Source: Candidatus Electronema sp. PJ (GTDB lineage Bacteria; Desulfobacterota; Desulfobulbia; Desulfobulbales; Desulfobulbaceae). From it: a stretch of 24,000 bases of DNA. The notes beneath the pieces are model-generated. The model ran no database searches. It worked only from the letters and a program-made list of their open reading frames with translations, and was not told where the DNA came from. Made by a program: the position numbers and the translations under genes. Below are positions 5,277 through 22,197 of the stretch, in pieces; position 1 is the first letter of the stretch; every line of letters begins with the position of its first letter. The stretch spans positions 6,880 to 30,879 of the forward strand of contig NZ_JBLWEO010000083.1 in NCBI RefSeq assembly GCF_048287395.1, written 5' to 3'.

Positions 5277-5280
5277 GCAA

Positions 5281-5518
5281 GCAGCAAGGGGAACAGGGTG
5301 TGCAGGTGAGCAAAAGCCCTCTGCAACGGGGAAAAATGGCCGTGCATCAGTGAAAAATCGTTCTGTAACGTGGAGAAATGACTGTGTAGCGGTGAAAAAT
5401 CACCCTGCACCGGTGAAAAATGATCGTGCAGTGGGTAAAAACGACAGTGCAGCAGGGAAAAACCATTCTGCAGCGGGGAAAAACGACTGTGCAGCACTGC
5501 ACCACCATTTTTCCCCGT
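5281..5518. repeat. Array 1: ten direct 21-nt degenerate tandem units plus one inverted terminal unit
   Basis: The GAAAAA-type core recurs at 5331, 5352, 5373, 5394, 5415, 5436, 5457 and 5478, exactly 21 nt apart. Weaker copies lie at 5289 and 5310. Unit consensus is about GCAGCGGTGAAAAAYNNYYGT. The last element is inverted (TTTTTCCCCG at 5508-5517) and pairs with CGGGGAAAAA at 5474-5483. Confidence 0.85.
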
Positions 5519-5526
5519 GTATTTAT

Positions 5527-5558
5527 CAGAAAACGGAAGGCCGCTGCCTCTCCTTCCG
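5527..5558 (-). terminator. Candidate intrinsic terminator for the minus-strand repeat/beta-barrel gene
   Basis: Stem CGGAAGG(5534-5540)/CCTTCCG(5552-5558). On the minus strand it is followed by TTTTCTGATAAATA. It lies about 20 nt downstream of the stop at 5580-5582. Confidence 0.5.
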
Positions 5559-5579: not shown

Positions 5580-7004
5580 TTAGAAGCGGAAGCGCAACCC
5601 GCCACCGATGCGGCCATATTTGTCCATATCGTCCAGCTCATCGGTGCCAACTCTGCCTTCCACGAAAATAGCCGCGCTGGTCGAGGCCGGAGCACCAAAG
5701 ATGCGCAGACCAATCTCGGCGATGTAGTCTGCTTGGCTGTCCTCGCTCGGCACTTCGTCTTCGCCATTGGTCATCCAGGAACCAACACCCAAGCCAAGGA
5801 AGAAGGGCGACCACGTTGCGCCGTGCGCTGAGGTGCATTGGTAGAAGTTATACTGCACCATGAGATCGAGCAGGAACGCATCGGCTCCAGCATCGCCACT
5901 GATCTTGGCTGCCCCGCCTGCTAAAGCCAAGAAGGAGAAGTGCGGATTAATAACATACTCCACGCCTAATCTACCTAGCCCGTAATCTGCTTCTTCTGGT
6001 TGCCGGAGATATCCTACGTCCGCAATGAAATGGAACGGCGACTCGCAGCACTGAGCCGCTGCACCCTGCACTTCTTTCACCACTTGCTTGACCACGGTTC
6101 GCGTCGGCCCAGGCACAGTGACTCGCTTCACGACGGTTCTGGTTGGGCCAGGCACATGGATAACCCGTTCCGGGCCAGGAACTTCCTTGACCACCTCTTT
6201 CACTACTTCTTTGACTACTGGTTTGTCCACGTATTTGATCACTTCCTTGGGCACGTAAACCGTCGGGCCAGTTACTTGTACTGGGCGATCAACATATTTG
6301 ATGACTTCTTTCGGAACATAAACCGTTGGCCCAGGCACCGGAACCTGCCGAACCACTTCTCTCACCACCGGGCGGTCAACATAAACCGTCGGGCCAGGAA
6401 CGGGAACCTGCACCTGCTTGATCACCTCTTGCGGGACATAGACGGTTGGGCCAGGCACCGGCACTTCCTTAATCACTTGCTGAATGACCGGGGCCTGCTG
6501 CTGCACTATTTGCACTGGCATCGGCGCAGGGACAGACTCCTTCAGGGCCAGATTGCCGCATTGCAGAGGTACGGCAAAGGTATAACGCTGGCCGTCCTTG
6601 TCAATCATAAACTCAAATACTGACAGCGGCGCATTGCCGCCCCAGGTCACATCCCGCGCTACCTTAACCCGGCCCTTGCCGTAGCGACGGAAGAGCATCC
6701 AGTCAATCTGCTGGCCTGGTAAGTAATCAACAATGGCGATCTGGGTCTGCGGATACTGGGCAATGTGGGCCTGCACCAGGGGGAAGAGGTCTGCATTGCC
6801 TGCTGCTGACATGCCCGCCTGGATATCGCCGCTCATATCCTGCATCATGGCCCGCAGATCCTCCACGGTTGATAGAGGTCGGGAAACCGGATGCGTACCC
6901 ACTGTCCTGAGAATACTTGCAGCCTGCACTTGGACTGCGCCTGTGGACGCAGTCAATGCGGCCAGCACTGCTACGGACACCAACATCTTTTTGCTCTTGT
7001 TCAT
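5580..7004 (-). CDS. Secreted protein: N-terminal globular domain, VPGPT/VKEV repeat linker, C-terminal OmpA-like 8-strand-type beta-barrel
   Basis: Start trimmed to ATG at 7004 (MNKSKKMLVSVAVLAALTASTGAVQVQAAS), which has AGGAGGAAG immediately upstream. The central region repeats PVPGPTVYVPKEVIKYVDRPV-like units. The C-terminus alternates hydrophobic residues and ends GGGLRFRF. Confidence 0.7.
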   Translation of the reverse strand: MNKSKKMLVSVAVLAALTASTGAVQVQAASILRTVGTHPVSRPLSTVEDLRAMMQDMSGDIQAGMSAAGNADLFPLVQAHIAQYPQTQIAIVDYLPGQQIDWMLFRRYGKGRVKVARDVTWGGNAPLSVFEFMIDKDGQRYTFAVPLQCGNLALKESVPAPMPVQIVQQQAPVIQQVIKEVPVPGPTVYVPQEVIKQVQVPVPGPTVYVDRPVVREVVRQVPVPGPTVYVPKEVIKYVDRPVQVTGPTVYVPKEVIKYVDKPVVKEVVKEVVKEVPGPERVIHVPGPTRTVVKRVTVPGPTRTVVKQVVKEVQGAAAQCCESPFHFIADVGYLRQPEEADYGLGRLGVEYVINPHFSFLALAGGAAKISGDAGADAFLLDLMVQYNFYQCTSAHGATWSPFFLGLGVGSWMTNGEDEVPSEDSQADYIAEIGLRIFGAPASTSAAIFVEGRVGTDELDDMDKYGRIGGGLRFRF

Positions 7005-7047
7005 CGCCTTCTTCCTCCTACATCTTTGTTGCATGTAATGAGCAGGC

Positions 7048-8727
7048 CTATTCCTGCTCAGAAATTGTCTGCCAATATGCTGGGTCAGCTGGGAATTCTT
7101 CCCGGCCAATCAAGGCCGCACCTACCGCGTTGCCCACTTCGTAATGCTCCGGGAAGCTGACGCTGGTGCGTAGCCGTTCTGCAACCGCAGGCAGGAAGCA
7201 GCGCGAGGCCGCACCAATGCCAATGATCGGGATCTTCACCGCCACGCTCAGGGAAAAGAGCGGGTTGTCCTTGCTGCTGAGAAAAGGGGCGGCCTCGCTG
7301 GCTGGCCAGACTTTGCGGGCCAGATAATCAAGGATGATGGTTTCAATAACTTGCTCGGTGGCTGCCACCACCCGCAGGCAGAGGCTTTCCACATCCATCT
7401 TCAGGGCCGCAGCCAAAGCAACAGCCCCGCGCTCGGCCTGCTCACGGTTGCCGATCTTCAGCTTGCCTAGGACATGCAGGGCATCAGTCGGCGTAAAGCC
7501 AATCATCCTGATCTGCTGGCGGTAGGTGAGTCGCTCCAACCATTTCTCTAACAGCACCCCAGACATGCCAATCTGCAGCGCCAAGGTCTCTGGGTTGGCT
7601 GCGCCATATTCGAGCAAACTGCGCAGGATTTCATCGTGCGAGGCTGCTGCTTCATCCAGCCCCTCTACCGGCATAACCAAGGCATTGCGCAGACCACAGC
7701 CCAACCAGTCTGCCGGATCTGGCAAACCAGTGGTCATAGACAGCGGCTGTACCCTCGTCTGCGCCAGACGAATGCTCGGGCTATGTTCTAGCGAGCAGAT
7801 AACATGGGAATCACCGCCCCCGCCTGCGGTGTACATGTCAATGGCCTCGATGTGGGTCTGCCACTGGCCGATCCGACAGCCTTCGTTGCTCAAGACCGGC
7901 CAACCGTTGCGGATCATACAGACATCAGTGGTTGTGCCGCCGACATCAACCACCAAGGCGGTCTGCTCGCCAGCGGTGCAACCGAAGCGGGCTGTAGCTG
8001 CCGGGCCACTGGCCACGGTAATTGCGGCTCGCTGCACGGCTTCGTCTAAGTTTGCGCCCCTACCGTTACCGCAGATGATCGTCACCGGGCAGTTTAGTCC
8101 GGCCCGGAGCATAGAAATCTGCACCGAGGAAAGAAAACCCACCATCAGCGGCATCAGGCGGGCGTGCAGGCAGGCCGTGGCTGCCCTGGCGTGCATTCCC
8201 GGACTACCGCTCACCTGATGCGAGCAGAAGACTGGCTTGGGATCGAGAATGCCAATGGCCTCTTCTGCCACCAACTCGTGGGTTGGGTTCTTGATCGACA
8301 TGGCACTACAGATCGCATAGCTATCTACCTCGCCGCGCAGGGCACGCACGGAATCCACCAGCCCTTCCAGATCAAGCGGCTCTTCTTCTTCGCCAGTGAT
8401 CTTATGGCCGCCCTTCATGAACACGCTGGCAGTCACTGGCAACTTGAAGTGGCGGACATGGCCAAAGACCAGCAAGGCAACCCGTGCGCCTCGTCCCTCA
8501 ACCACTGCGTTGGTAGCCAAGGTAGTAGAGACAGACAAACGGTTAACAGCCTCTGGTGGGATGCCAAAGGACAGGAGCCGCTCCAACACCTTGCCCACGC
8601 CAATGCCGAGATCGTGATGCGTGGTCGGCTCCTTGACCGAATGTGCCACCTGAAGGGTGGAATTGCTGATCAGAACGCCGTCGGTGCAGGTGCCGCCGGT
8701 GTCAATGCCGATGCAATAGCTGTCCAT
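7048..8727 (-). CDS. Hydantoinase/oxoprolinase-family (ASKHA-fold) protein
   Basis: Start trimmed to ATG at 8727 (MDSYCIGIDTGGTCTDGVLI). A second phosphate-binding motif is present (LVVDVGGTTTDVCMI). Both are typical of the hydantoinase A/oxoprolinase family. Stop codon is TAG. Confidence 0.7.
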   Translation of the reverse strand: MDSYCIGIDTGGTCTDGVLISNSTLQVAHSVKEPTTHHDLGIGVGKVLERLLSFGIPPEAVNRLSVSTTLATNAVVEGRGARVALLVFGHVRHFKLPVTASVFMKGGHKITGEEEEPLDLEGLVDSVRALRGEVDSYAICSAMSIKNPTHELVAEEAIGILDPKPVFCSHQVSGSPGMHARAATACLHARLMPLMVGFLSSVQISMLRAGLNCPVTIICGNGRGANLDEAVQRAAITVASGPAATARFGCTAGEQTALVVDVGGTTTDVCMIRNGWPVLSNEGCRIGQWQTHIEAIDMYTAGGGGDSHVICSLEHSPSIRLAQTRVQPLSMTTGLPDPADWLGCGLRNALVMPVEGLDEAAASHDEILRSLLEYGAANPETLALQIGMSGVLLEKWLERLTYRQQIRMIGFTPTDALHVLGKLKIGNREQAERGAVALAAALKMDVESLCLRVVAATEQVIETIILDYLARKVWPASEAAPFLSSKDNPLFSLSVAVKIPIIGIGAASRCFLPAVAERLRTSVSFPEHYEVGNAVGAALIGREEFPADPAYWQTISEQE

Positions 8728-8997: not shown

Positions 8998-10302
8998 ATG
9001 CAAATGACCGACCGAGCCAAAACCGTTGCTGATGCCTACCGGGCCTGCAACCCGGAAAAGCCTCTGTCTGCTGAGGATGATCGCTATGTTGATCTCTCGG
9101 AAAGCCGGGGCGTGGAGCATATTGCTGAACTCATCACCTGGAGAATCCAGAACAGCGAACCTGCCGTGCAAATCAAACAGCTTTTCACTGGCCATCGCGG
9201 TTCTGGCTAGACCACTGAGCTGTTTCGTTTGCAAAAGGAACTGGAGAACAACAAGTTCTGCACAGTGTATATGGACGTGGAAGAGCTGCTTGATCTGGGT
9301 TCGCTCAATTATCTTGACGTGCTGGTAGCTATCGCCCGCCAACTTCAGGAAGAGCTGGCCAAAAGAGACCTGCCGCTGCCAGATGTGCTCCTGAATAACA
9401 TCGCGAGCTGGTTTGACGAGTGTATTGTTGAAGAGACAAAGAGCACGGAAAAGCAAGGCTGCGTTGGAACTGAGGCGAAAGCAGGCAGCAAAATCCCCTT
9501 TTTCGCCGAACTGTTTGCCAGCGTCACCGCCAACATTAAGACTGGCAGCACCCAGCGGGAGACGATCAGGAAAAAACTGAGCCGGGAACTCAGTGTGTTT
9601 ATGGACAAGCTCAACCTGCTGATCAGTACGGCCCGCGAAAAGGTGCGCAAAAAAGGCTTTGCTGATCTTGTCCTGATTGTGGACGGCATGGAGAAGATGC
9701 ACTACGAGCTGAATTCAGAAGGTCAGTCCAACTACAACGTGCTTTTCATTCACAACGCCGAGCGGCTGCGGGCACCGGAATGCCACATCATTTACACCGT
9801 GCCGGTTTCGCTCGCCTATCAGCAAAATCTCAAGGCGTATTTTGATGACATTATCGTCCTACCGATGGTCAAGACGGATAAGCCAGGCATCAAGAAGCTG
9901 ATTGAGGTTGTCGAACGGCGAGTGGATACCAGTTTGGTCTTCGGCGGGCCTAAACTGCTGACCAAGCTGGCGCAGACCAGTGGCGGCGTGGTGCGCGACC
10001 TGATGCACTTGATACGGATGTCGATGGAGACCAAAGCCGAGCAGATTGGCGCGGCTGATGTGGATCGCGCTATCTCTAATCTGCGTAAAATCTATGATCG
10101 CCTGATTCGCGAAAACGATATCGAGCACTTCCAGCGGATTCAGCGCACTCGCCGCATCCAAGGCGGCGATGAAAAGGCGGGCCGCCTGCTTGACCAACGC
10201 TTAGTACTGGAGTATCAGAACGGCGATCTTTGGGCAGATATCCACCCAATCGTTCGCCAAATCCCCTGGGTCAAAGCTGCGCTGGCTGACCATGCAGCCT
10301 GA
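8998..10302 (+). pseudogene. STAND/AAA-like P-loop NTPase interrupted by one in-frame TAG at the Walker A lysine codon (9208-9210)
   Basis: ORFs 8998-9210 and 9229-10302 are in the same frame. Reading through gives ...IKQLFTGHRGSG*TTELFRLQKEL..., which is GxxGxGK[ST]T with the K codon replaced by TAG. A Walker-B-like, NACHT-like motif FADLVLIVDGMEKM lies at about 9661-9699. No other stop occurs in the downstream 364 codons. Confidence 0.6.
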
Positions 10303-11845
10303 AAGCACCGAATCCGTTATCAGCCGGATATGCCGCGCTCTGAGCTGGGCAGACGGCTTTGCCCTCTTCTTTGTCCTCGTCAATCTGCCAACAGCGCGGA
10401 AGGCCCTGGCCCGCCAAGTGATCACCCAGTTTGCGCGGCCCGTTGTTGAGCTGACTGTACCGCAGCAGGGCTTTGGCGGCACGACCTTAGACGGCTGGCT
10501 ACTGCCTCAGTTGTCAGGCACAGACGAAACCAGCCCGGTTTTCCTGCATGGCTTGGACCAGCTCCTGCCTAGCGGGCAAAAGCAGCTGCGGCATTTCCTC
10601 CAGCAGCTCAATTGGCGGCGTTCTGCGCTGGCTGCGATCAAGCGGCCTTTGGTGCTTTGGCTGCCGCGCCACGCTTTGGACAGCCTGGCCGAGTATGCGC
10701 CGGACTTTTACGACTGGTACAGCAATGTTTATGAGTTTGCCTCGCCGGATGAGGAAGCAGTGCAGCTGGGCAATGGCTTTAGGGCGGAATTCAACACCGA
10801 GGTGCATCCAGCCTTACGCCAAAGCAAGGCAGAAAAGGAGCAATGGCTGCACACCTTGACCGTGCTCCTGGATGAACACCCGGAACGCAACGCCTACCGG
10901 GCCAAGTTGCTTTATGATACAGGCCAACTGCATTATGCTCTGGGCAATTTGGATGATGCCTTTGCCTTGTACAAGCAATCACTCGACATCTACAGAGAAC
11001 TTGGCAACAAGCAGGGGGAAGGAGCACGTCTCAACAACATCTCTCAGATTTACCATACCCGGGGTGACTACGAAACCGCGCTCGAATATCTCCAGCAGGC
11101 ACTCGCAATTCAGCAGGAGATTGGCGATAAGCAGGGGGAAGGAGAAAGCTTCAACAACATCTCCCAAATTTACAAAGCCCGGGGCGAATACGAAACCGCG
11201 CTTAACTATCTTGAACAGTCGCTCAACATCCGCAGAGAACTTGGCGACAAGCAGAGAGAAGGAGTAATTCTCAACAATATTTCCGGGATTTACTATGCCC
11301 TTGGCGACGACGAAACCGCACTTAACTATCTTAAACAGTCGCTCGAGATCAGCAAAGTACTCGGCGACAAGCAGGGAGAAGGAGTAATCTTCAACAACAT
11401 TTCCCAGATTTACTATGCCAGTGGCGACGACGAAACAGCACTTAATTATCTTAAACAGTCGCTCGAGATCAGCAAATTACTCGGTGACAAGCAAGGAGAA
11501 GGAGTAATCCTTAACAACATCTCGTTGATTTATAAGGCCCATGGCGACTACGAAACCGCGCTCGACTTTCTCCAGCAATCACTTGTAATTCGTCAGGAGA
11601 CTGGCAACAAGGCAGGGCTTTGTACCACCCTATTCAACATCGGCCATCTTCACAGAAACAAAGGAGAAGAGGAAAAAGCCCGGCAAATGTGGGTGCAAGC
11701 CTATCTGCTGGCCAAAGAAATCGGCTACGCTGACGTATTGCATAATTTGGAGCAATTAGCCAAAAAACTTGGCTGGGAAGGCGGCTTACAGGCTTGGCAA
11801 ACACTGGCAAAGAAGTTCAACCTGGGCAAGACCAAGCCAGATTGA
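10292..11845 (+). CDS. TPR-repeat protein with an N-terminal domain of about 170 aa and unknown function
   Basis: The ATG at 10292 overlaps the NTPase stop (10300-10302) by 11 nt. There are about seven 40-aa TPR_12-like units, for example GDYETALEYLQQALAIQQEIGDKQGEGESFNNISQIYKAR. Confidence 0.85.
   Translation: MQPESTESVISRICRALSWADGFALFFVLVNLPTARKALARQVITQFARPVVELTVPQQGFGGTTLDGWLLPQLSGTDETSPVFLHGLDQLLPSGQKQLRHFLQQLNWRRSALAAIKRPLVLWLPRHALDSLAEYAPDFYDWYSNVYEFASPDEEAVQLGNGFRAEFNTEVHPALRQSKAEKEQWLHTLTVLLDEHPERNAYRAKLLYDTGQLHYALGNLDDAFALYKQSLDIYRELGNKQGEGARLNNISQIYHTRGDYETALEYLQQALAIQQEIGDKQGEGESFNNISQIYKARGEYETALNYLEQSLNIRRELGDKQREGVILNNISGIYYALGDDETALNYLKQSLEISKVLGDKQGEGVIFNNISQIYYASGDDETALNYLKQSLEISKLLGDKQGEGVILNNISLIYKAHGDYETALDFLQQSLVIRQETGNKAGLCTTLFNIGHLHRNKGEEEKARQMWVQAYLLAKEIGYADVLHNLEQLAKKLGWEGGLQAWQTLAKKFNLGKTKPD
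10890..11730 (+). repeat. Intragenic 120-bp tandem repeats encoding the TPR units
   Basis: The TCAACAACAT-type motif recurs at 11031, 11151, 11271, 11391, 11511 and 11631, exactly 120 nt apart. The units around 11300-11410 and 11420-11530 are nearly identical at the nucleotide level. Confidence 0.85.
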
Positions 11846-11859
11846 TTCGAGTCTGGCCT

Positions 11860-12150
11860 CTGCGCACTCCTTTGCCAGCTGCTTGCTCTGCTTGGTAAGT
11901 CGCTCGCCAAGGAGTTTGGCTCGGCAGAACTCCTTTCCTACTCGGCCAAACTCCTTTGTTGCCTAGCCGCATTCCTTTTCTGCCGACTCCAACTCCTTTC
12001 TTGCCGACTTGCACTCCTTTCCGGCCAAACAGCAAAGGAGTGCGGCCAAGCAAAACTCCTTTGTTGCCTAGCCGAACTCCTTTGCGGCTTGGCAAAACTC
12101 CTCTTCTGCCGAGTACAACTCCTTGCTTACCGACTTGCAAAGCAGGGGAA
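11860..12150. repeat. Array 2: about 14 phased 21-nt degenerate tandem units
   Basis: The ACTCCTTT-type core occurs at 11866, 11929, 11950, 11971, 11992, 12013, 12055, 12076, 12097 and 12118, all in 21-nt register. Inverted cores AAAGGAGT/AAGGAGT lie at 12034 (in register) and 11909 (1 nt off register). Unit is about ACTCCTTTSTTGCCGASYYRM. Confidence 0.85.
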
Positions 12151-12184
12151 ACAGGTGGCAATGGCTGGGAAATCCAGCGAAATC

Positions 12185-13822
12185 CTACAACAGCCCGTTC
12201 ACTATCGCCTTGGCCTCGTCCTGAATCCGGGCCAAGTGCGCCGCATCAATGAAACTCTCGGCGTAAATTTTGTAGATGTCCTCGGTGCCGGAAGGCCGCA
12301 GGGCGCACCAGCCGTTGGCCGCGACAATCTTCAGCCCACCGATGGCTGCGCCGTTGCCCGGTGCTTTGGTGAGAATGGCAACGATGGGTTCTCCGGCCAA
12401 GGTTTTCACCGGCACGTCCTCCGGCTGCAATTTCTTCAGCACCGCCTTCTGCACGGGCGTGGCGGGCGCGTCAATGCGAGCATAAACCGGCGCACCAAAC
12501 TGCTGCGTCAGATCTTGATAGTATTCGCCCGGATCGCGTCCGGTTCGCGCCGTGATTTCAGCCGCCAGCAGGTTGAGGATGATGCCGTCCTTGTCCGTGC
12601 TCCAGACCGTGCCGTCCTTGCGCAGGAAGCTCGCGCCCGCGCTTTCCTCGCCGCCAAAAAAAACTTTGCCCTTGAGCAGGCCGTCCACGAACCATTTGAA
12701 ACCGACCGGCACTTCAACCACTTTGCGGCCCAGCGCGGCGGCGGCGCGATCAATGATTGAGCTGCTGACTAAGGTTTTACCTATACCCAAATCAGCTCGC
12801 CACTGCGGACGATGCTGGGCTAAGTAGGAAATAGCGACGCTCAGGTAGTGATTTGGGTTCATCAGGCCCATGCTCTTGGTGACAATGCCGTGGCGGTCAA
12901 AGTCGGTGTCGTTGCCAAAGGCGATATCAAAGTCCGCCTTCATCGCCACCAGCCCGGCCATCGCGTAGGGCGAGGAGCAGTCCATGCGGATTTTGCCATC
13001 CTTATCGCAGTGCATGAAGGAGAAGGTGGAATCGAGCGTGTCGTGGAAAATCTCCATGTTCAAGCCGTATTGCGCCTTAATCGCCTGCCAGTAGGCCATG
13101 CCTGCGCCGCCCATTGCGTCCGCGCCAATGCGGATGCCGGACTTGGCAATGGCCTCCATGTCAATCACTTGGGTCAAATCCTTGACATAAGGCAGCACGT
13201 AATCGTACAAACGCAGTGTCTCCACCTTGAGCGCGTCCGCCAGCGGCAGTATTTTTACTCCAGCTAAATTGTCTTCAAGCAGCTGGTTAGCGCGGGCCTC
13301 GATAACGCTGGTCACATCGGTATCTGCTGGGCCACCATGCGGCGGATTGTACTTGAACCCGCCGTCAGCAGGCGGATTATGTGACGGGGTGATGACGATG
13401 CCGTCGCAAAGCGGTCTGCCCTGCTGGTTATGGGTGAGGATAGCGTGTGAGATGACTGGTGTGGGCGTGTAAACCGAATTCCCAGCGGCAATACAGACCT
13501 GTACCTTGTTGGCGGCCAGCACTCGCAACGCCGTGAGCTGGGCAGGCCAGGAGAGCGGGTGGGTATCCATGCCCATGAACAAGGTGCCATTGATGCCTGC
13601 TTCACGTCGGTAATCACAAACAGCCTGGGTAATGGCCAAGATGTGCGCCTCGTTGAAGCTGCGCTTAAGCGCACTCCCACGATGGCCAGAAGTGCCGAAG
13701 CTGACTCTTTCCGCGCTCTGCTGCGTATCAGGAATCAAGGTAAAATAGGCGGAAATTAATTCCGGGACATTGATTAATATCGATTGCGGGGCAGGCAGGC
13801 CTGCTAAAGGGTGGGTGCTCAT
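12185..13822 (-). CDS. pgm: Alpha-D-glucose phosphate-specific phosphoglucomutase
   Basis: Start trimmed to ATG at 13822 ([12 protein letters not shown]...), with AGGAGGAA upstream. The product is 546 aa, the same length as E. coli Pgm. Active-site loop is [17 protein letters not shown]. Metal loop is GADAMGG. C-terminus contains ...[18 protein letters not shown]. Confidence 0.92.
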
Positions 13823-13950
13823 GGTTCCTCCTGTGCTGTTTACTGGTCGTGCTGCTTCTCTGCTGCGGCAAAAGTATCCCGTCTTCGTCAATCTTGCCAG
13901 AGAAAAACAGCAGTTGGCAGGCAGCCTTGCCCAGAAAAACGCAGAAAGCC

Positions 13951-13979
13951 GTTGACAGCTTCTGCTGTTTAGCATAAAG
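13951..13979 (+). promoter_or_regulatory. Candidate sigma70-type promoter for rpsU
   Basis: TTGACA (13951-13956), a 17-nt spacer, then TAAAGT (13974-13979). It lies about 70 nt upstream of the rpsU ATG. This is sequence pattern only. Confidence 0.35.
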
Positions 13980-14051
13980 TGACCCGCTTATGCACTTTAA
14001 GATGAACACGCAGATGGGACATGCCATTTCAGCAAAGGATGTGATTTTTTC

Positions 14052-14318: not shown

Positions 14319-15230
14319 GTGTTGGAAACCTCGCCTCTGATTGACAGCCTTGACCACTTTCTGCGCCATCTCACGGTACAGCGTAGGCTCTCTCTGAACA
14401 CGGTTAATAGCTACGGTTCTGATCTGCGGTTCTTTATAGAATTTCTCCAAAAGCAGCACATAGACGATCCAGCGCACATCACTGCCGTTGAAGTTCGGGC
14501 TTTCCTAAAAGATTGCTTTGCGCGCGAGATTCAAGCCCGTAGTAATGCCCGACGACTCTCTGCTCTACGCTCCTTTTTCGCTTTCCTGGTCTTGCAAGGA
14601 AAGCTCACTGTCAGCCCAGCAGCAGAGATAGACCTACCCAAGATTGGCAGCATTCTTCCAGGAACTCTGTCTGTCGCCGAAGTTGATCTCTTGCTCGTAC
14701 CACCTGATGCGGGCGAGACTGATCCATTGCTGTTGCGCAATGCCGCGATGCTCCACTTGCTCTATGCCACTGGTATCCGGGTTTCCGAATTAGTCAATCT
14801 GCCCGTGCAGGATTGCAGTTTGAGCAGCGGCCATGTCCGCATTCTTGGCAAAGGGAATAAAGAGCGCATGGTGCCATTCAACACCGAGGCAGGTGTGAGA
14901 ATTACAGCTTATTTGGAACAAGGCCGTCCAGTATTACTGAGCGGGCGGAGTAGCCGTTTTCTCTTTGTCACCAAACAAGGTGGAGCCATGACCCGCAACC
15001 GCTTCTGGCGGATCATTGGCGAACTGGCCCGACAGCGCGGCATCAGTAAGACTGTCAGTCCCAAGACCATGCGGCACTCTTTCGCTACCCACATGCTGGC
15101 AGGCGGAGCCGATTTGCGTGCTCTCCAGATGATGCTCGGTCATGCTGATATTGCCACTACCCAAATTTATACCCACGTTGATAAAAGTCGCCTCAAGGCC
15201 GGGCACCAGAAGTTTCACCCACGCGGCTAA
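14319..15230 (+). CDS. xerD: Tyrosine recombinase XerD
   Basis: Collinear with E. coli XerD. Shared motifs include LYATGIRVSELV, ILGKGNKERMVP, MRHSFATHML, GADLRALQMMLGHADIATTQIYTHV and a C-terminal HPRG. Apparent GTG start at 14319. Confidence 0.85.
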   Translation: MLETSPLIDSLDHFLRHLTVQRRLSLNTVNSYGSDLRFFIEFLQKQHIDDPAHITAVEVRAFLKDCFAREIQARSNARRLSALRSFFAFLVLQGKLTVSPAAEIDLPKIGSILPGTLSVAEVDLLLVPPDAGETDPLLLRNAAMLHLLYATGIRVSELVNLPVQDCSLSSGHVRILGKGNKERMVPFNTEAGVRITAYLEQGRPVLLSGRSSRFLFVTKQGGAMTRNRFWRIIGELARQRGISKTVSPKTMRHSFATHMLAGGADLRALQMMLGHADIATTQIYTHVDKSRLKAGHQKFHPRG

Positions 15231-16655: not shown

Positions 16656-16714
16656 CGCCGATTCGTTTCTTCATCCCACACCCGCCCTTGCCTCTCATCC
16701 ACGTTGGAGGGAAA

Positions 16715-17021
16715 GTATCATCTAGATGCGTCACTCAGGGTCATCAGGATGAGTCTTTCCTGTCATCTATATGAGTCTCCTAGGGTCATATAGATGACAC
16801 TTCTGGTATCATATAGATGGTACGTTCCCTCCAACGTATATAAGTCCGACCGACTTATACACGTATGTCCCTCGGACATACGTACGTTGGAGAAAAACTG
16901 GATCCTACGTTTGAGACTTCCTCGAACGTACGTTCCAGCATGTCTCGAACGAGTGTTTGAGGATTCCTCAAACGTACGTTTGACTTTTTCTCGAACGCTC
17001 GTTTGAGATTTTCTCAAACGT
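16715..17021. repeat. Array 4: about 13 phased units of 22-23 nt, each an internal palindrome or hairpin
   Basis: Family A has core TCATNTANATGA at 16718, 16741, 16763, 16786 and 16809. Family B consists of ACGT-bounded 23-nt hairpin units starting at 16861, 16884, 16907, 16930, 16953, 16976 and 16999. An example is ACGTATGTCC-ctc-GGACATACGT. Another is CGTTTGAGA-ttt-TCTCAAACG. A 14-bp perfect stem pairs 16761-16774 with 16786-16799. Confidence 0.85.
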
Positions 17022-17046
17022 ACGATCTAGTTTCCCGCCTCTGTTC

Positions 17047-17075
17047 TTGACAAACCGGGCTAGGCTCCGTATGCT
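17047..17075 (+). promoter_or_regulatory. Candidate sigma70-type promoter upstream of thyX
   Basis: TTGACA (17047-17052), a 17-nt spacer, then TATGCT (17070-17075). It lies directly downstream of array 4 and about 110 nt upstream of the thyX ATG. This is sequence pattern only. Confidence 0.3.
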
Positions 17076-19511: not shown

Positions 19512-20669
19512 TCAATCTCTTTCCGGCCTGACTGCCTCTTGCTCTTCAGCCCGCATTGCCAGCGCATCCTCCAGAATGGCACTGACCTCGTTGGCAGCCC
19601 GCTGCATGGCTTCATCGCGGTAATGGGCGTACCGCTGGGTCATCTGCGGACTTTTGTGCGTCATCAGCTTTTGCAATGTGAACATGTCCACCTTGCCGCT
19701 ACTGGCCAGCATGGTGGCATATACATGTCGCAGCCCATGTAATGGCCGGAAATCTGCGGGCAACCCAGCTGTATCCCTAATCGCCCTGACCTCCTTGGCA
19801 ATGTCGTTGCGCTGGCCACCACCTTGGGCCGGGAAAACATATTCACCGCCCTGCTTCGCGAGGGATTGGAACAAAGCACTTGCGCTGTTGTTGAGCGGAA
19901 TCTTCTGACTCTTCCCACCTTTTGGCTCCCGGATATGGATGAAGCCCCGCTCGAAATCTATATCATCCCATTTCAGCTTGAATAGCTCGCCCCGGCGCAT
20001 ACCAGTATATAATACGAGCCGCATCATGTTAGCCGCTGGAACGCACGTGCTTGTCTCCATCGCTTTAAAGAGCCTCCGCATCTGCTCTGGGGTCAAGTCT
20101 TCGGTCTTGATGTTGTCAACAGAGGGCATGTCAATCTTGAAGGACAGGGGGGCAGTCCAGCCTAGCCCGCAGCCGTAATTCACAATCCTCTTCAGCAGAG
20201 TTAGAACATGCTTCACCGTCTGTGGTGCAAGGGTTTTCAGCAGGTTTGTTCGTAGTCGGTCAATGTCCAGCTTAGTAAGCTCGTGCGGCTCTTTGCTACC
20301 AAAGAGTTGCTTCAGGTATTTTGCATATCTGCCAGCATCACTTTGGGTTGACCGGCTGTCAGGTAAGCAAGCGCGGTAGGCTTCCCACAGATGCGCCACT
20401 GTTCGCCGTTGACTGATCTCTTCATCAGCGGCCTTGCGTCTGTCGCGATTACTTTGCTGTTTGCCTTCGATTTTATCTGAGCGGATGCCTGCGGCTTTAA
20501 CAGGAGTCATGTTGTCCTGGTACTGGCGGCCTGCCTTTTCTTCAACCAATTTTCCGTCTTTTCTGTAGCGGATATAGTAGATCCGCTCCGTCTTTTTCCC
20601 GTTGGCTGCCATGCCCTCAATGTAGAACACCCCGGCATAGTTTGTTTTATACCGTTTCATGCTTGCCAT
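19512..20669 (-). CDS. Tyrosine-type site-specific integrase (phage integrase family)
   Basis: Catalytic residues appear intact: TGMRRGEL (Arg), HGLRHVYAT (HxxR) and RYAHY (Tyr). The N-terminal SAM-like/arm-binding region is present. Confidence 0.88.
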   Translation of the reverse strand: MASMKRYKTNYAGVFYIEGMAANGKKTERIYYIRYRKDGKLVEEKAGRQYQDNMTPVKAAGIRSDKIEGKQQSNRDRRKAADEEISQRRTVAHLWEAYRACLPDSRSTQSDAGRYAKYLKQLFGSKEPHELTKLDIDRLRTNLLKTLAPQTVKHVLTLLKRIVNYGCGLGWTAPLSFKIDMPSVDNIKTEDLTPEQMRRLFKAMETSTCVPAANMMRLVLYTGMRRGELFKLKWDDIDFERGFIHIREPKGGKSQKIPLNNSASALFQSLAKQGGEYVFPAQGGGQRNDIAKEVRAIRDTAGLPADFRPLHGLRHVYATMLASSGKVDMFTLQKLMTHKSPQMTQRYAHYRDEAMQRAANEVSAILEDALAMRAEEQEAVRPERD

Positions 20670-21895: not shown

Positions 21896-21924
21896 TTCAA
21901 CCTAGAAATGCAACTAAACTACTG

Positions 21925-22195
21925 TTGCAGTTTATCCGCAAAGGTCTTTTGTTAAGCCGCAAAAAGTTGTTGCTTAACAAAAGATCTTTGTTGTTTGGCA
22001 ACCAAGAGTTGTTGTTTCGCCGCAACCTTCTTCTGCTTGGCAACAAGAGGTTTATGCCGAGCCAAAGAAGGTTGTTGCTAAACAAGAGAAGGTTGTTATT
22101 TGGCAAGAACCTTCTCTTGCCGAGCTGAAACCTTTTGTTGCTCGGCAACAACTCTTCTTTGCCGAACAACAACCCTTTGTCAGCTAACTGTTGCC
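21925..22195. repeat. Array 3: about 12-13 phased 21-nt degenerate tandem units with embedded inverted repeats
   Basis: The TTGYTNRGCA-type anchor occurs at 21949, 21970, 21991, 22012, 22033, 22054, 22075, 22096, 22117, 22138 and 22159, exactly 21 nt apart. Perfect 12-bp inverted repeat CTTTTGTTAAGC(21946-21957)/GCTTAACAAAAG(21972-21983). Perfect 9-bp inverted repeat TTGCCGAGC(22117-22125)/GCTCGGCAA(22140-22148). Confidence 0.85.
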
Positions 22196-22197
22196 CC

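Follow-up and report, generated by a model that had tools for sequence, protein, structure and literature searches.

A phased 21-nt modular repeat in the gap between two convergent genes of the cable bacterium Candidatus Electronema sp. PJ

It is not possible to grow cable bacteria in pure culture, and next to nothing is known of how they regulate their genes. What is to be made, then, of a gap between two of their genes that is occupied by a strictly phased repeat, the core of which looks like a ribosome-binding site? Such a gap is found in a stretch of 24,000 nt from Candidatus Electronema sp. PJ (contig NZ_JBLWEO010000083.1, positions 6,880 to 30,879 of the forward strand; this whole stretch is called the window, and positions refer to it unless a related contig is named), where a gene for a TPR-repeat protein and the phosphoglucomutase gene pgm run towards each other. 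A sequence-only reading of the repeat, here called array 2 as the second of four phased arrays in the window, had pointed to its resemblance to the Shine-Dalgarno (SD) sequence and to the complementary anti-SD sequence of the ribosome, and had asked whether this has a function.

Array 2 is real, highly non-random and non-coding, it is built of modules that lie either way round in fixed slots, and its kin occur in other assemblies. Most likely it belongs to the broad class of extragenic repeats that act, if at all, as structured 3′ ends. More specifically, we put a probability of about 0.4 on array 2 being an intergenic repeat resembling either the repetitive extragenic palindromes (REP) and bacterial interspersed mosaic elements (BIME), or a MITE (miniature inverted-repeat transposable element) of the minisatellite type, which both mRNAs enter and which provides hairpins at their 3′ ends. 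An SD-related or protein-sponge function may exist; the explanations that compete with our preferred one are taken up below where the evidence touches them.

Anatomy and folding of array 2

The repeat element fills the convergent intergenic region completely (11846..12184, without a strand of its own). The gap measures 339 nt, with the TPR stop at 11845 and the pgm stop at 12185; the first core lies about 20 nt past the former and the array ends about 5 nt short of the latter. By means of a register table and orientation scoring the array is resolved into 15 slots of exactly 21 nt (11866..12180, no strand), with zero insertions or deletions (indels) over all of them, and TRF reports a period of 21 for parts of it. 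The exact 21-nt register claimed earlier for about 14 units is thereby borne out for 15. Each slot consists of an 8-nt core module and a 13-nt spacer module with yTGCCGAG, both of which occur in either orientation, and the self-identity of the array at lag 21 is 0.63-0.69.

Ten of the 15 cores are direct, one is degenerate direct, two are clearly inverted and two are degenerate inverted, so the statement that most units carry the core on the plus strand was correct. The direct cores comprise seven exact copies of ACTCCTTT (11866..11873, 11929..11936, 11950..11957, 11992..11999, 12013..12020, 12055..12062 and 12076..12083) and the one-base variants ATTCCTTT (11971..11978), ACTCCTCT (12097..12104) and ACTCCTTG (12118..12125), to which the degenerate TCTGCTTG, with 5 of 8 positions, can be added (11887..11894). 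On the minus strand are the inverted cores CAAGGAGT (11908..11915) and AAAGGAGT (12034..12041), the degenerate AAAGCAGG with 6 of 8 positions (12139..12146, within the right inverted arm described below), and a last degenerate inverted core at the right end (12160). Both clear inversions are in register. For the one at 12034 this had been recognised; the other had been placed 1 nt off register, at 11909, which does not hold, as AAGGAG at 11909 and 12035 is in the phase of CTCCTT.

That the array is not a product of local base composition follows from simple counts. The hexamer ACTCCT occurs nine times in 11846-12184, always in the same 21-nt phase, whereas 2000 dinucleotide shuffles of this stretch contained it 0.2 times on average and twice at most; this confirms the enrichment of SD-like cores on which the sequence-only reading had made its case depend. 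All seven copies of ACTCCTTT in the 24-kb window lie inside this gap, and a three-core pattern was found twice in the window as compared to none in 100 shuffles. The core is also the best-conserved part of the unit: its majority fraction is 0.89, against 0.62 for the oriented spacer (0.53 unoriented). Over 8-9 nt it reads AACTCCTTT or the complement AAAGGAGTT, and the AAGGAG/CTCCTT that it contains is the canonical SD hexamer with its complement; at the level of sequence, the resemblance is genuine.

The difference in conservation between core and spacer is one of the points that speak against a rival explanation, a neutral or selfish minisatellite without effect on its host, produced by slippage and small inversions in a gap that tolerates it, with the SD-like core as a founder accident. 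Further points are the octamer that is kept in at least four arrays of other assemblies, the retention of apparently orthologous arrays between assemblies, and the recurrence of the discrete periods of 21 and 23 nt, which suggests constraint or a specific generating mechanism. We consider this explanation rather unlikely, even though recent block duplicates within the array fit it. Slot 11951 recurs as 12056 and slots 11972-11993 recur as 12098-12119, and over the pairs 11951/12056, 11972/12098 and 11993/12119 there are 3 differences in about 27 core positions and 4 in about 36 spacer positions, which is approximately equal per base. The lack of wobble bias in the stems (see below), the many unrelated array sequences within the lineage, and the fact that the array is not kept beside the pgm or TPR orthologue in relatives are also what a neutral repeat would show.

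The spacers are oriented about half and half whereas the cores mostly point one way, and many cores therefore lie between complementary spacers. An example is found at 12064-12094, where TTGCCTAGCCG, a core and CGGCTTGGCAA follow each other and the direct core at 12076 occupies the loop of the 11-bp hairpin TTGCCTAGCCG/CGGCTTGGCAA. Palindromes in array 2 arise only from pairs of units in opposite orientation. One of them is a perfect 10-bp hairpin, GCACTCCTTT/AAAGGAGTGC, with a 13-nt loop (12011..12043, no strand; arms 12011-12020 and 12034-12043), in which the direct core at 12013 pairs with the inverted core at 12034; the existence of this hairpin had been predicted correctly, its length of 8 bp had not. 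On a larger scale, a left arm of about three units (11869..11929) is 77% complementary to a right arm of about three units (12104..12164), neither having a strand, and no duplication of bases was seen outside these inverted ends. A small hairpin, GCTGG-GAAAT-CCAGC (12165..12179, no strand), stands between the array and the pgm stop, with no T-run after it.

Folding goes beyond that of shuffled sequences on both strands (z = -5.0 and -5.3), and comparison of these scores reveals no difference between the strands; the lower raw energies of local hairpins on the minus strand are explained by G+U content. Single slots, taken with 6 nt on each side, fold weakly (0 to -5 kcal/mol in 9 of 14). The predicted probability of being unpaired is about 0.6 for cores on either strand against about 0.33 elsewhere (0.59 against 0.31 on the minus strand, 0.63 for plus-strand cores), and in local folds of the minus strand the core of most units is in the loop of a 5-11-bp stem.

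The predicted exposure of the cores is the basis of what we see as the most interesting live alternative, namely that a minus-strand transcript, either the 3′ untranslated region (UTR) of pgm or a processed small RNA (sRNA), acts as a decoy that presents about ten AAAGGAGU motifs and titrates a CsrA/RsmA-type protein or binds the 30S subunit in a STAB-SD-like manner. An A-N-GGA is present in every core, the roughly ten SD-like sites expected on the pgm-sense strand were counted as 10 A-A-GGA motifs, pgm has no terminator before the array, and the core is a conserved hallmark of a multi-locus family, as Csr/Rsm sponges are likewise multi-copy. The known CsrB/Rsm sponges have irregular motif spacing, in contrast to the rigid 21 nt found here. 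It also argues against a decoy that the cores flip strand in place, with a near balance of orientations in two arrays from other assemblies (P0366 and P0376, see below), that the plus strand exposes them equally well, that the sister array 4 is without GGA, and that neither a promoter nor a terminator for an independent sRNA is present. A search of Rfam gave nothing at the gathering score and no CsrB/Rsm match even at E up to 10, where only chance hits to microRNA-like hairpins appeared. With tblastn no csrA was detected in 145 kb of cable-bacterium DNA, which is less than 5% of a genome, and no link between cable bacteria and CsrA was found in the literature searched. All together, we think it improbable that arrays with the AAAGGAGU core form a family of multivalent decoy RNAs derived from the 3′ UTRs of convergent genes, or, more broadly, that the 21- and 23-nt arrays, which take up a large share of the intergenic regions sampled in the lineage, constitute an undescribed regulatory class. 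A demonstrated function of the core, be it as protein sponge, in 30S binding or in recognition by a spreading machinery, would add to the importance of the arrays and offer a first handle on post-transcriptional control in cable bacteria.

Dispersal of the family and the coding question

The gene order around pgm, the TPR gene and an aminotransferase gene differs in every relative compared (L001, L003, L004, L246, L247, L249, L250 and L251), which precluded a cross-species DNA alignment of array 2; no orthologue that could be aligned at the DNA level was found beside the pgm or TPR orthologue in these relatives. The translated array, in the minus-strand frame with heptads xGxKGVx, was run by phmmer against 1.84 billion protein representatives. 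This yielded 51 matches, and most of the 37 sequences that were read are unrelated heptad-repeat proteins. At least four of them (P0363, P0366, P0369 and P0376; 157-177 aa, E 7e-14 to 1e-6), all from NCBI assemblies with contigs of 38-110 kb, are translations of the array family. They share its vocabulary: KGV corresponds to AAA GGA GTn (AAAGGAGT) and TPF/TPL to ACT CCT TTn (ACTCCTTT), in the same 8-nt slot and frame, whereas xPS[RQH] and x[LV]G[NKRQ] represent the two spacer orientations. P0367 is more loosely related, and one member of its cluster bears the name Ca. Electronema sp.

The number of units varies among the family members of other assemblies. P0366 and P0376 have an identity of 64% over 92 aa. 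One 7-residue unit sets them apart, and at one slot KGV in one sequence stands against TPx in the other; both arrays have roughly equal numbers of the two core orientations. Their difference is the gain or loss of a unit plus the in-place flip of a core, and apparently orthologous arrays thus seem to be kept between related genomes. Judged from these translations, the family is a dispersed one, multi-copy or multi-genome, with the SD-like octamer as its conserved signature, which recurs in no fewer than four additional arrays of other assemblies.

Nucleotide pattern searches added little. A search of genome contigs with ACTCCT-N15-ACTCCT-N15-ACTCCT gave, among the matches listed, microsatellites with heptamer units, for example (ACTCCTN)n, of cyanobacteria and other organisms, which are uninformative. 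The matches listed for metagenome contigs (ACTCCTTT-N13-34-ACTCCTTT-N13-34-ACTCCT) included unrelated tandem repeats with periods of 8-42 nt, several of them of 21 nt and none with a TGCCGAG spacer, and the viral-contig search gave three irrelevant matches. Six unrelated metagenome contigs (L131, L143, L173, L193, L200 and L243) contain near-perfect 21-nt or 42-nt arrays that start with ACTCCTTT; they were picked by the search pattern, so that their frequency is meaningless.

Could the array be a gene? A minus-strand frame of 114 codons, with heptads xGxKGVx, is open across the whole array, the 21-nt period equals seven codons, no indel disturbs it, and gene callers have called similar open reading frames (ORFs) in other assemblies. 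A real repetitive basic protein is nevertheless scarcely credible. A second frame on the other strand is open as well, the information content has no 3-nt periodicity, no Pfam match was obtained, the start codon would be a TTG that lies at the pgm stop itself and has no SD, and kindred arrays with a 23-nt period cannot code. Moreover, in-place inversion of a core swaps KGV for TPF/TPL, within arrays and between related ones; since this is not a tolerable substitution in a protein, conservation must be at the level of DNA. Array 2 is non-coding.

Public annotations hold "hypothetical proteins" of 150-180 aa that are translations of such arrays (P0363, P0366, P0369, P0376, P0367/P0412 and P0405), and those with KGV/TPF are very probably annotation artefacts. 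Even if array 2 represents only a new class of REP-like repeat, the spurious "hypothetical proteins" to which such arrays give rise, four to five of which were found, are of practical relevance.

Transcript ends and the Shine-Dalgarno resemblance

According to the reading that we prefer, array 2 is a single copy from a non-coding repeat family, dispersed and lineage-specific, of cable bacteria of the Electronema type. Its structure is that of a modular minisatellite, in which core and spacer modules can each lie either way round within their slot; the three outermost units of one side are inverted copies of those on the other. It would change as whole units are gained or lost and as a module that has inverted modules on both sides turns round in place (hairpin flip-flop), the invertible segment being either a core with opposite spacers beside it or a spacer with opposite cores beside it. 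We infer this mutational mechanism from the mixture of orientations. Since duplication or deletion of whole units and in-place inversion preserve the period, the exact 21-nt register would be explained without selection on the period, and the rigid phase alone is no proof of selection for helical phasing.

Both mRNAs would run into the array, where many imperfect hairpins and one long outer stem could form. By analogy with REP and BIME elements, the array probably gives the transcripts a structured 3′ end that holds back exonucleases or read-through. The core with its SD-like sequence is the signature of the family and probably does not work as a ribosome-binding site. In the region 11600-12400 no sigma-70-like promoter was found, and the only terminator-like site is inside the TPR coding region. 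Since neither side leaves space for a terminator ahead of the array, both transcripts very probably run into it, unless their ends lie within coding sequence; array 2 would then be transcribed from both sides.

Several observations weigh against this interpretation. A canonical intrinsic terminator is lacking, as no hairpin of array 2 is followed by a T-run. Taken singly, the 21-nt units form no palindrome, and the REP tags are missing: neither GTAG and CGTC nor GACG occur in 11846-12184, which has one CTAC. Among the mismatches of the inverted pairs there is no bias towards wobble (G-T 12, A-C 20, other 33), and thus no indication that RNA pairing has been under selection. With a position weight matrix of the unit, neither the window nor 123 kb of related loci yielded an additional copy. 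Finally, the core is conserved above the spacer, both within the array and across loci, which is unexplained by a purely structural role and may reflect recognition of the sequence itself, be it by a protein, the ribosome or the spreading machinery.

A specific SD or anti-SD role is not supported. The bases that follow the cores are variable spacer, without a consistent start codon (ATG, GTG or TTG) after the SD-like sites, and the only long frame is the spurious repeat ORF. SDs of the GGAGG type are in use in this organism, for example ahead of pgm. The other three arrays of the window have the same phased architecture with unrelated cores, AAGGTT/AACCTT taking the place of GGAG in array 4. 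In-place strand flips of the core, within arrays and between apparently orthologous ones, fit poorly to any strand-specific function. An SD-specific role is also disfavoured by the recent duplicates, in which differences are as frequent in the core as in the spacer.

The anti-SD version of this idea is that the plus-strand transcript, the 3′ UTR of the TPR gene, exposes about ten CUCCUUU loops that sequester the SDs of mRNAs or its own antisense transcript. The match is close, since AACTCCTTTCT agrees at 10 of 11 positions with the usual 3′ tail of 16S rRNA, ACCTCCTTTCT, and the plus-strand cores are mostly unpaired by prediction (0.63). It is the strand flips, the sister array without the motif and the absence of a transcription unit that make such a mimic highly improbable; global titration of SDs would be toxic, and no precedent for such a mimic is known.

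Flanking genes, other phased arrays and known systems

The gene calls of the sequence-only reading, with the TPR gene on the plus strand and pgm on the minus strand with its stop at 12185, have held. The TPR gene (10292..11845, plus strand, 517 aa) is an ORF with the Pfam domains TPR_12 and TPR_10, the best homologues of which are TPR proteins of cable bacteria; within it, 10982-11563 consists of 120/240-nt tandem repeats (about 4.7 copies, 79% identity) that are the TPR modules seen at the DNA level. The phosphoglucomutase (12185..13822, minus strand, 545 aa; Pfam PGM_PMM domains I-IV) is 92% identical to that of a Ca. Electronema metagenome-assembled genome, the next-best matches being from Electronema and Electrothrix. 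Its longest ORF (596 aa, 12185-13975) overshoots the homologues by 51 residues, and by homology the start is residue 52, the ATG at 13822, with ACAGGAGGAACC just before it.

The neighbourhood of array 2 comprises the TPR gene, pgm, a xerD-like gene and lipid-synthesis genes; by the annotation of the window no replication, partition or regulator gene adjoins the array. The window contains no insertion sequence (IS), and its tyrosine recombinases (14319-15230 and 19512-20669) belong to the Phage_integrase family and are not Y1 transposases. From the differences in gene order the lineage appears heavily rearranged, with IS elements, toxin-antitoxin pairs and phage-like genes at junctions in the loci of relatives, and breakpoints may coincide with array-bearing gaps.

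The three further phased arrays in the window have periods of 21, 23 and 21 nt and other cores. Array 1 (5277-5545, 21 nt, TGCAG..GGGGAAAAA) lies between a convergent histidine-kinase gene and an outer-membrane-like gene. It has about ten units (cTGCAgCGGGGAAAAAcGAc) after the histidine-kinase gene and a terminal inverted unit that gives a long hairpin, CGGGGAAAAA...TTTTTCCCCG, followed by TGTATTTAT; at about 5535-5557 there is a separate GGAAGG...CCTTCC hairpin with a T-rich tail, terminator-like for the convergent gene at 5580-7109. A flank motif common to arrays 1 and 2 (GCAGGGGAAACAGG) was lost in an ungapped search. Array 3 (16693-17053, 23 nt), with hairpin units such as CGTTTGAG..CTCAAACG, is positioned immediately upstream of a TTGACA-17-TATGCT promoter that precedes thyX. 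Array 4 (21911..22196) occupies the gap where pepP and the subtilase gene converge. Its slots, also of 21 nt, combine AAGGTT/AACCTT cores with TTGCCGAG/CTCGGCAA spacers, and no other part of the window shows a detectable similarity to array 2 (for array 4, E = 0.001, 69% over 65 nt). It has this spacer in common with array 2, has no GGAG in its cores, and is a diverged, weakly homologous relative. In its 12-13 slots the AAGGTT-type cores are on the left and the AACCTT-type cores on the right, which turns the whole gap into one large imperfect palindrome.

Similar arrays are present in related contigs: three in the 10-kb L250, two in L249, and one each in L003, L004 and L251. The metagenome contig L250, from one of the closest relatives found (aminotransferase 83% identical), has its arrays at 299-717, 5698-6239 and 8529-8670; one consists of about 17 units of 21 nt with AATGAGGCATT/AATGCCTCATT modules that flip in place, one has a 41-nt period and has the GCCTCAT/ATGAGGC module in common, and one is made of 23-nt units with ATGCAGGCAT palindromes. 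In L251 an intergenic 23-nt array with GAGACACCATAGTGTCTCC-type palindromic units occupies 551-726. In L003 a 21-nt array of palindromic units (GATAAGGCCTTATC, GGACAAGGCTTGATCC; 13806-14015) abuts an N block in the public record, which suggests that such arrays break or get masked in assemblies. L249 has two copies, 5.5 kb apart and about 96% identical, of an element of about 200 nt that is made up of a leader, three hairpin units of 23 nt and a TTGACA promoter. It looks like a dispersed promoter-carrying element, and its duplication indicates that array-bearing elements can disperse as units.

The 23-nt units consist of a palindrome of 15-18 nt and a linker, and the palindrome sequence differs within and between arrays. 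Directly downstream of the 23-nt arrays at 16693-17053 in the window, 5379-5543 in L004, and 11606-11716 and 6096-6181 in L249 are sigma-70-like promoters with a similar -35 region (TTGACAnAnCnGGnC).

The periods of 21 and 23 nt recur across unrelated arrays, and phased arrays appear to be a general trait of a lineage that seems unusually rich in intergenic arrays of these periods. Their density cannot be compared with that in other bacteria, as the control loci had been chosen by 21-nt-spaced patterns. In the literature searched we found no mention of phased arrays in cable bacteria. Many intergenic regions in the window and in related contigs are filled with modular arrays of 21 or 23 nt. 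Such arrays probably break short-read assemblies and may mark rearrangement-prone junctions.

The position of 23-nt arrays just upstream of sigma-70-like promoters at three loci suggests a role at the level of DNA for at least that class. For array 2 one can similarly envisage a phased binding array, iteron- or centromere-like, in which a protein binds AACTCCTTT, perhaps also TGCCGAG at a distance of half a period, every two turns on one face of the helix and forms a cooperative filament or a bent or wrapped complex. The exact period of 21 bp (two turns of 10.5 bp), kept over 15 slots with zero indels despite diverged spacers, would follow naturally; repeated protein sites are classically recognised by a conserved core, here of 8-9 bp, beside a spacer that varies, and the centre of the second module is about 9-12 bp from the core. 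This explanation is likewise improbable, as the unrelated cores of the many arrays would need many cognate proteins, the site is not a palindrome and yet both orientations are tolerated in one slot, and the fixed period is also explained by whole-unit duplication and in-place inversion. A site between two gene ends is not a regulatory location, and neither an adjacent replication, partition or regulator gene nor a plasmid match was found.

Some known types of repeat were considered and rejected. CRISPR would require unique spacers, which are absent; TIGR arrays have 36-nt units and a Nop-domain protein; integron attC sites have R′/R″ cores, which are lacking; for sigma-54 promoters the spacing is wrong; and the TAACTGA-type heptamer repeats of Beggiatoaceae are contiguous heptamers beside start codons (PMC4679880).

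Of the known systems, REP/BIME elements (E. coli BIME-2, Pseudomonas REPINs, Stenotrophomonas SMAG) are similar to array 2 in having short units (20-40 nt) in both orientations, in extragenic clusters that can form larger hairpins, with several lineage-specific families per genome (PMC3733652). REPs prefer positions between convergent genes or downstream of ORFs and are thought to act as RNA hairpins (PMC3733652); array 2 fills the convergent TPR-pgm gap, and arrays 1 and 4 also lie between convergent genes, which makes three of the four arrays in the window. In contrast to REPs, the unit of array 2 is not itself a palindrome and has no GTAG/CGTC tag, the units abut in a rigid 21-nt register, core and spacer flip independently, and the conserved part is an asymmetric SD-like octamer instead of a stem.

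A second comparison is with BrickBuilt, a MITE of Porphyromonas gingivalis with an internal 23-nt minisatellite (PMC4596501). Both have abutting imperfect tandem units of about 21-23 nt with conserved and variable halves, inverted ends, an intergenic location and non-identical copies with varying unit number; BrickBuilt is present several times per genome and is restricted to its species (PMC4596501), and copies of the array 2 family are seen across assemblies. The units of BrickBuilt are all direct (PMC4596501), whereas those of array 2 flip, and the inverted ends of array 2 are array units, with no IS-like ends or target duplications seen. The duplicated 23-nt array-plus-promoter element in L249 is the closer analogue of BrickBuilt. 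Because of its non-palindromic units, the absence of GTAG/CGTC and inverted ends made of units, array 2 fails the definition of a REP/BIME as well as that of BrickBuilt, and it is only by general kind, and tentatively, that we file it as REP/BIME- or minisatellite-like.

The CsrB, RsmY and RsmZ RNAs likewise have many GGA motifs, many of them in predicted loops or single-stranded linkers, as with the 10 A-A-GGA motifs on the minus strand of array 2, and they share with it an intergenic location and membership of a multi-locus family. Array 2 differs by its rigid spacing, by motifs on both strands, by having no promoter or terminator of its own and no match to any Rfam family, and its partner protein is putative. 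Plasmid iterons and type II centromere repeats (17-22 bp) resemble it in having a conserved core, a less conserved remainder and a period of about two helical turns, whereas array 2 is chromosomal, lies between gene ends without a rep or par gene and without an AT-rich or DnaA-box context, and showed no similarity to the plasmids in PLSDB. Hairpin-associated small inversions in non-coding chloroplast DNA were reportedly described by Kelchner and Wendel in 1996. These are a mutational phenomenon of organelle spacers and define no family of elements; still, a segment between short inverted repeats flips in place from one close relative to another with unchanged length, as the cores and spacers of array 2 do, and it is as the proposed mechanism for the mix of orientations that we draw on them here.

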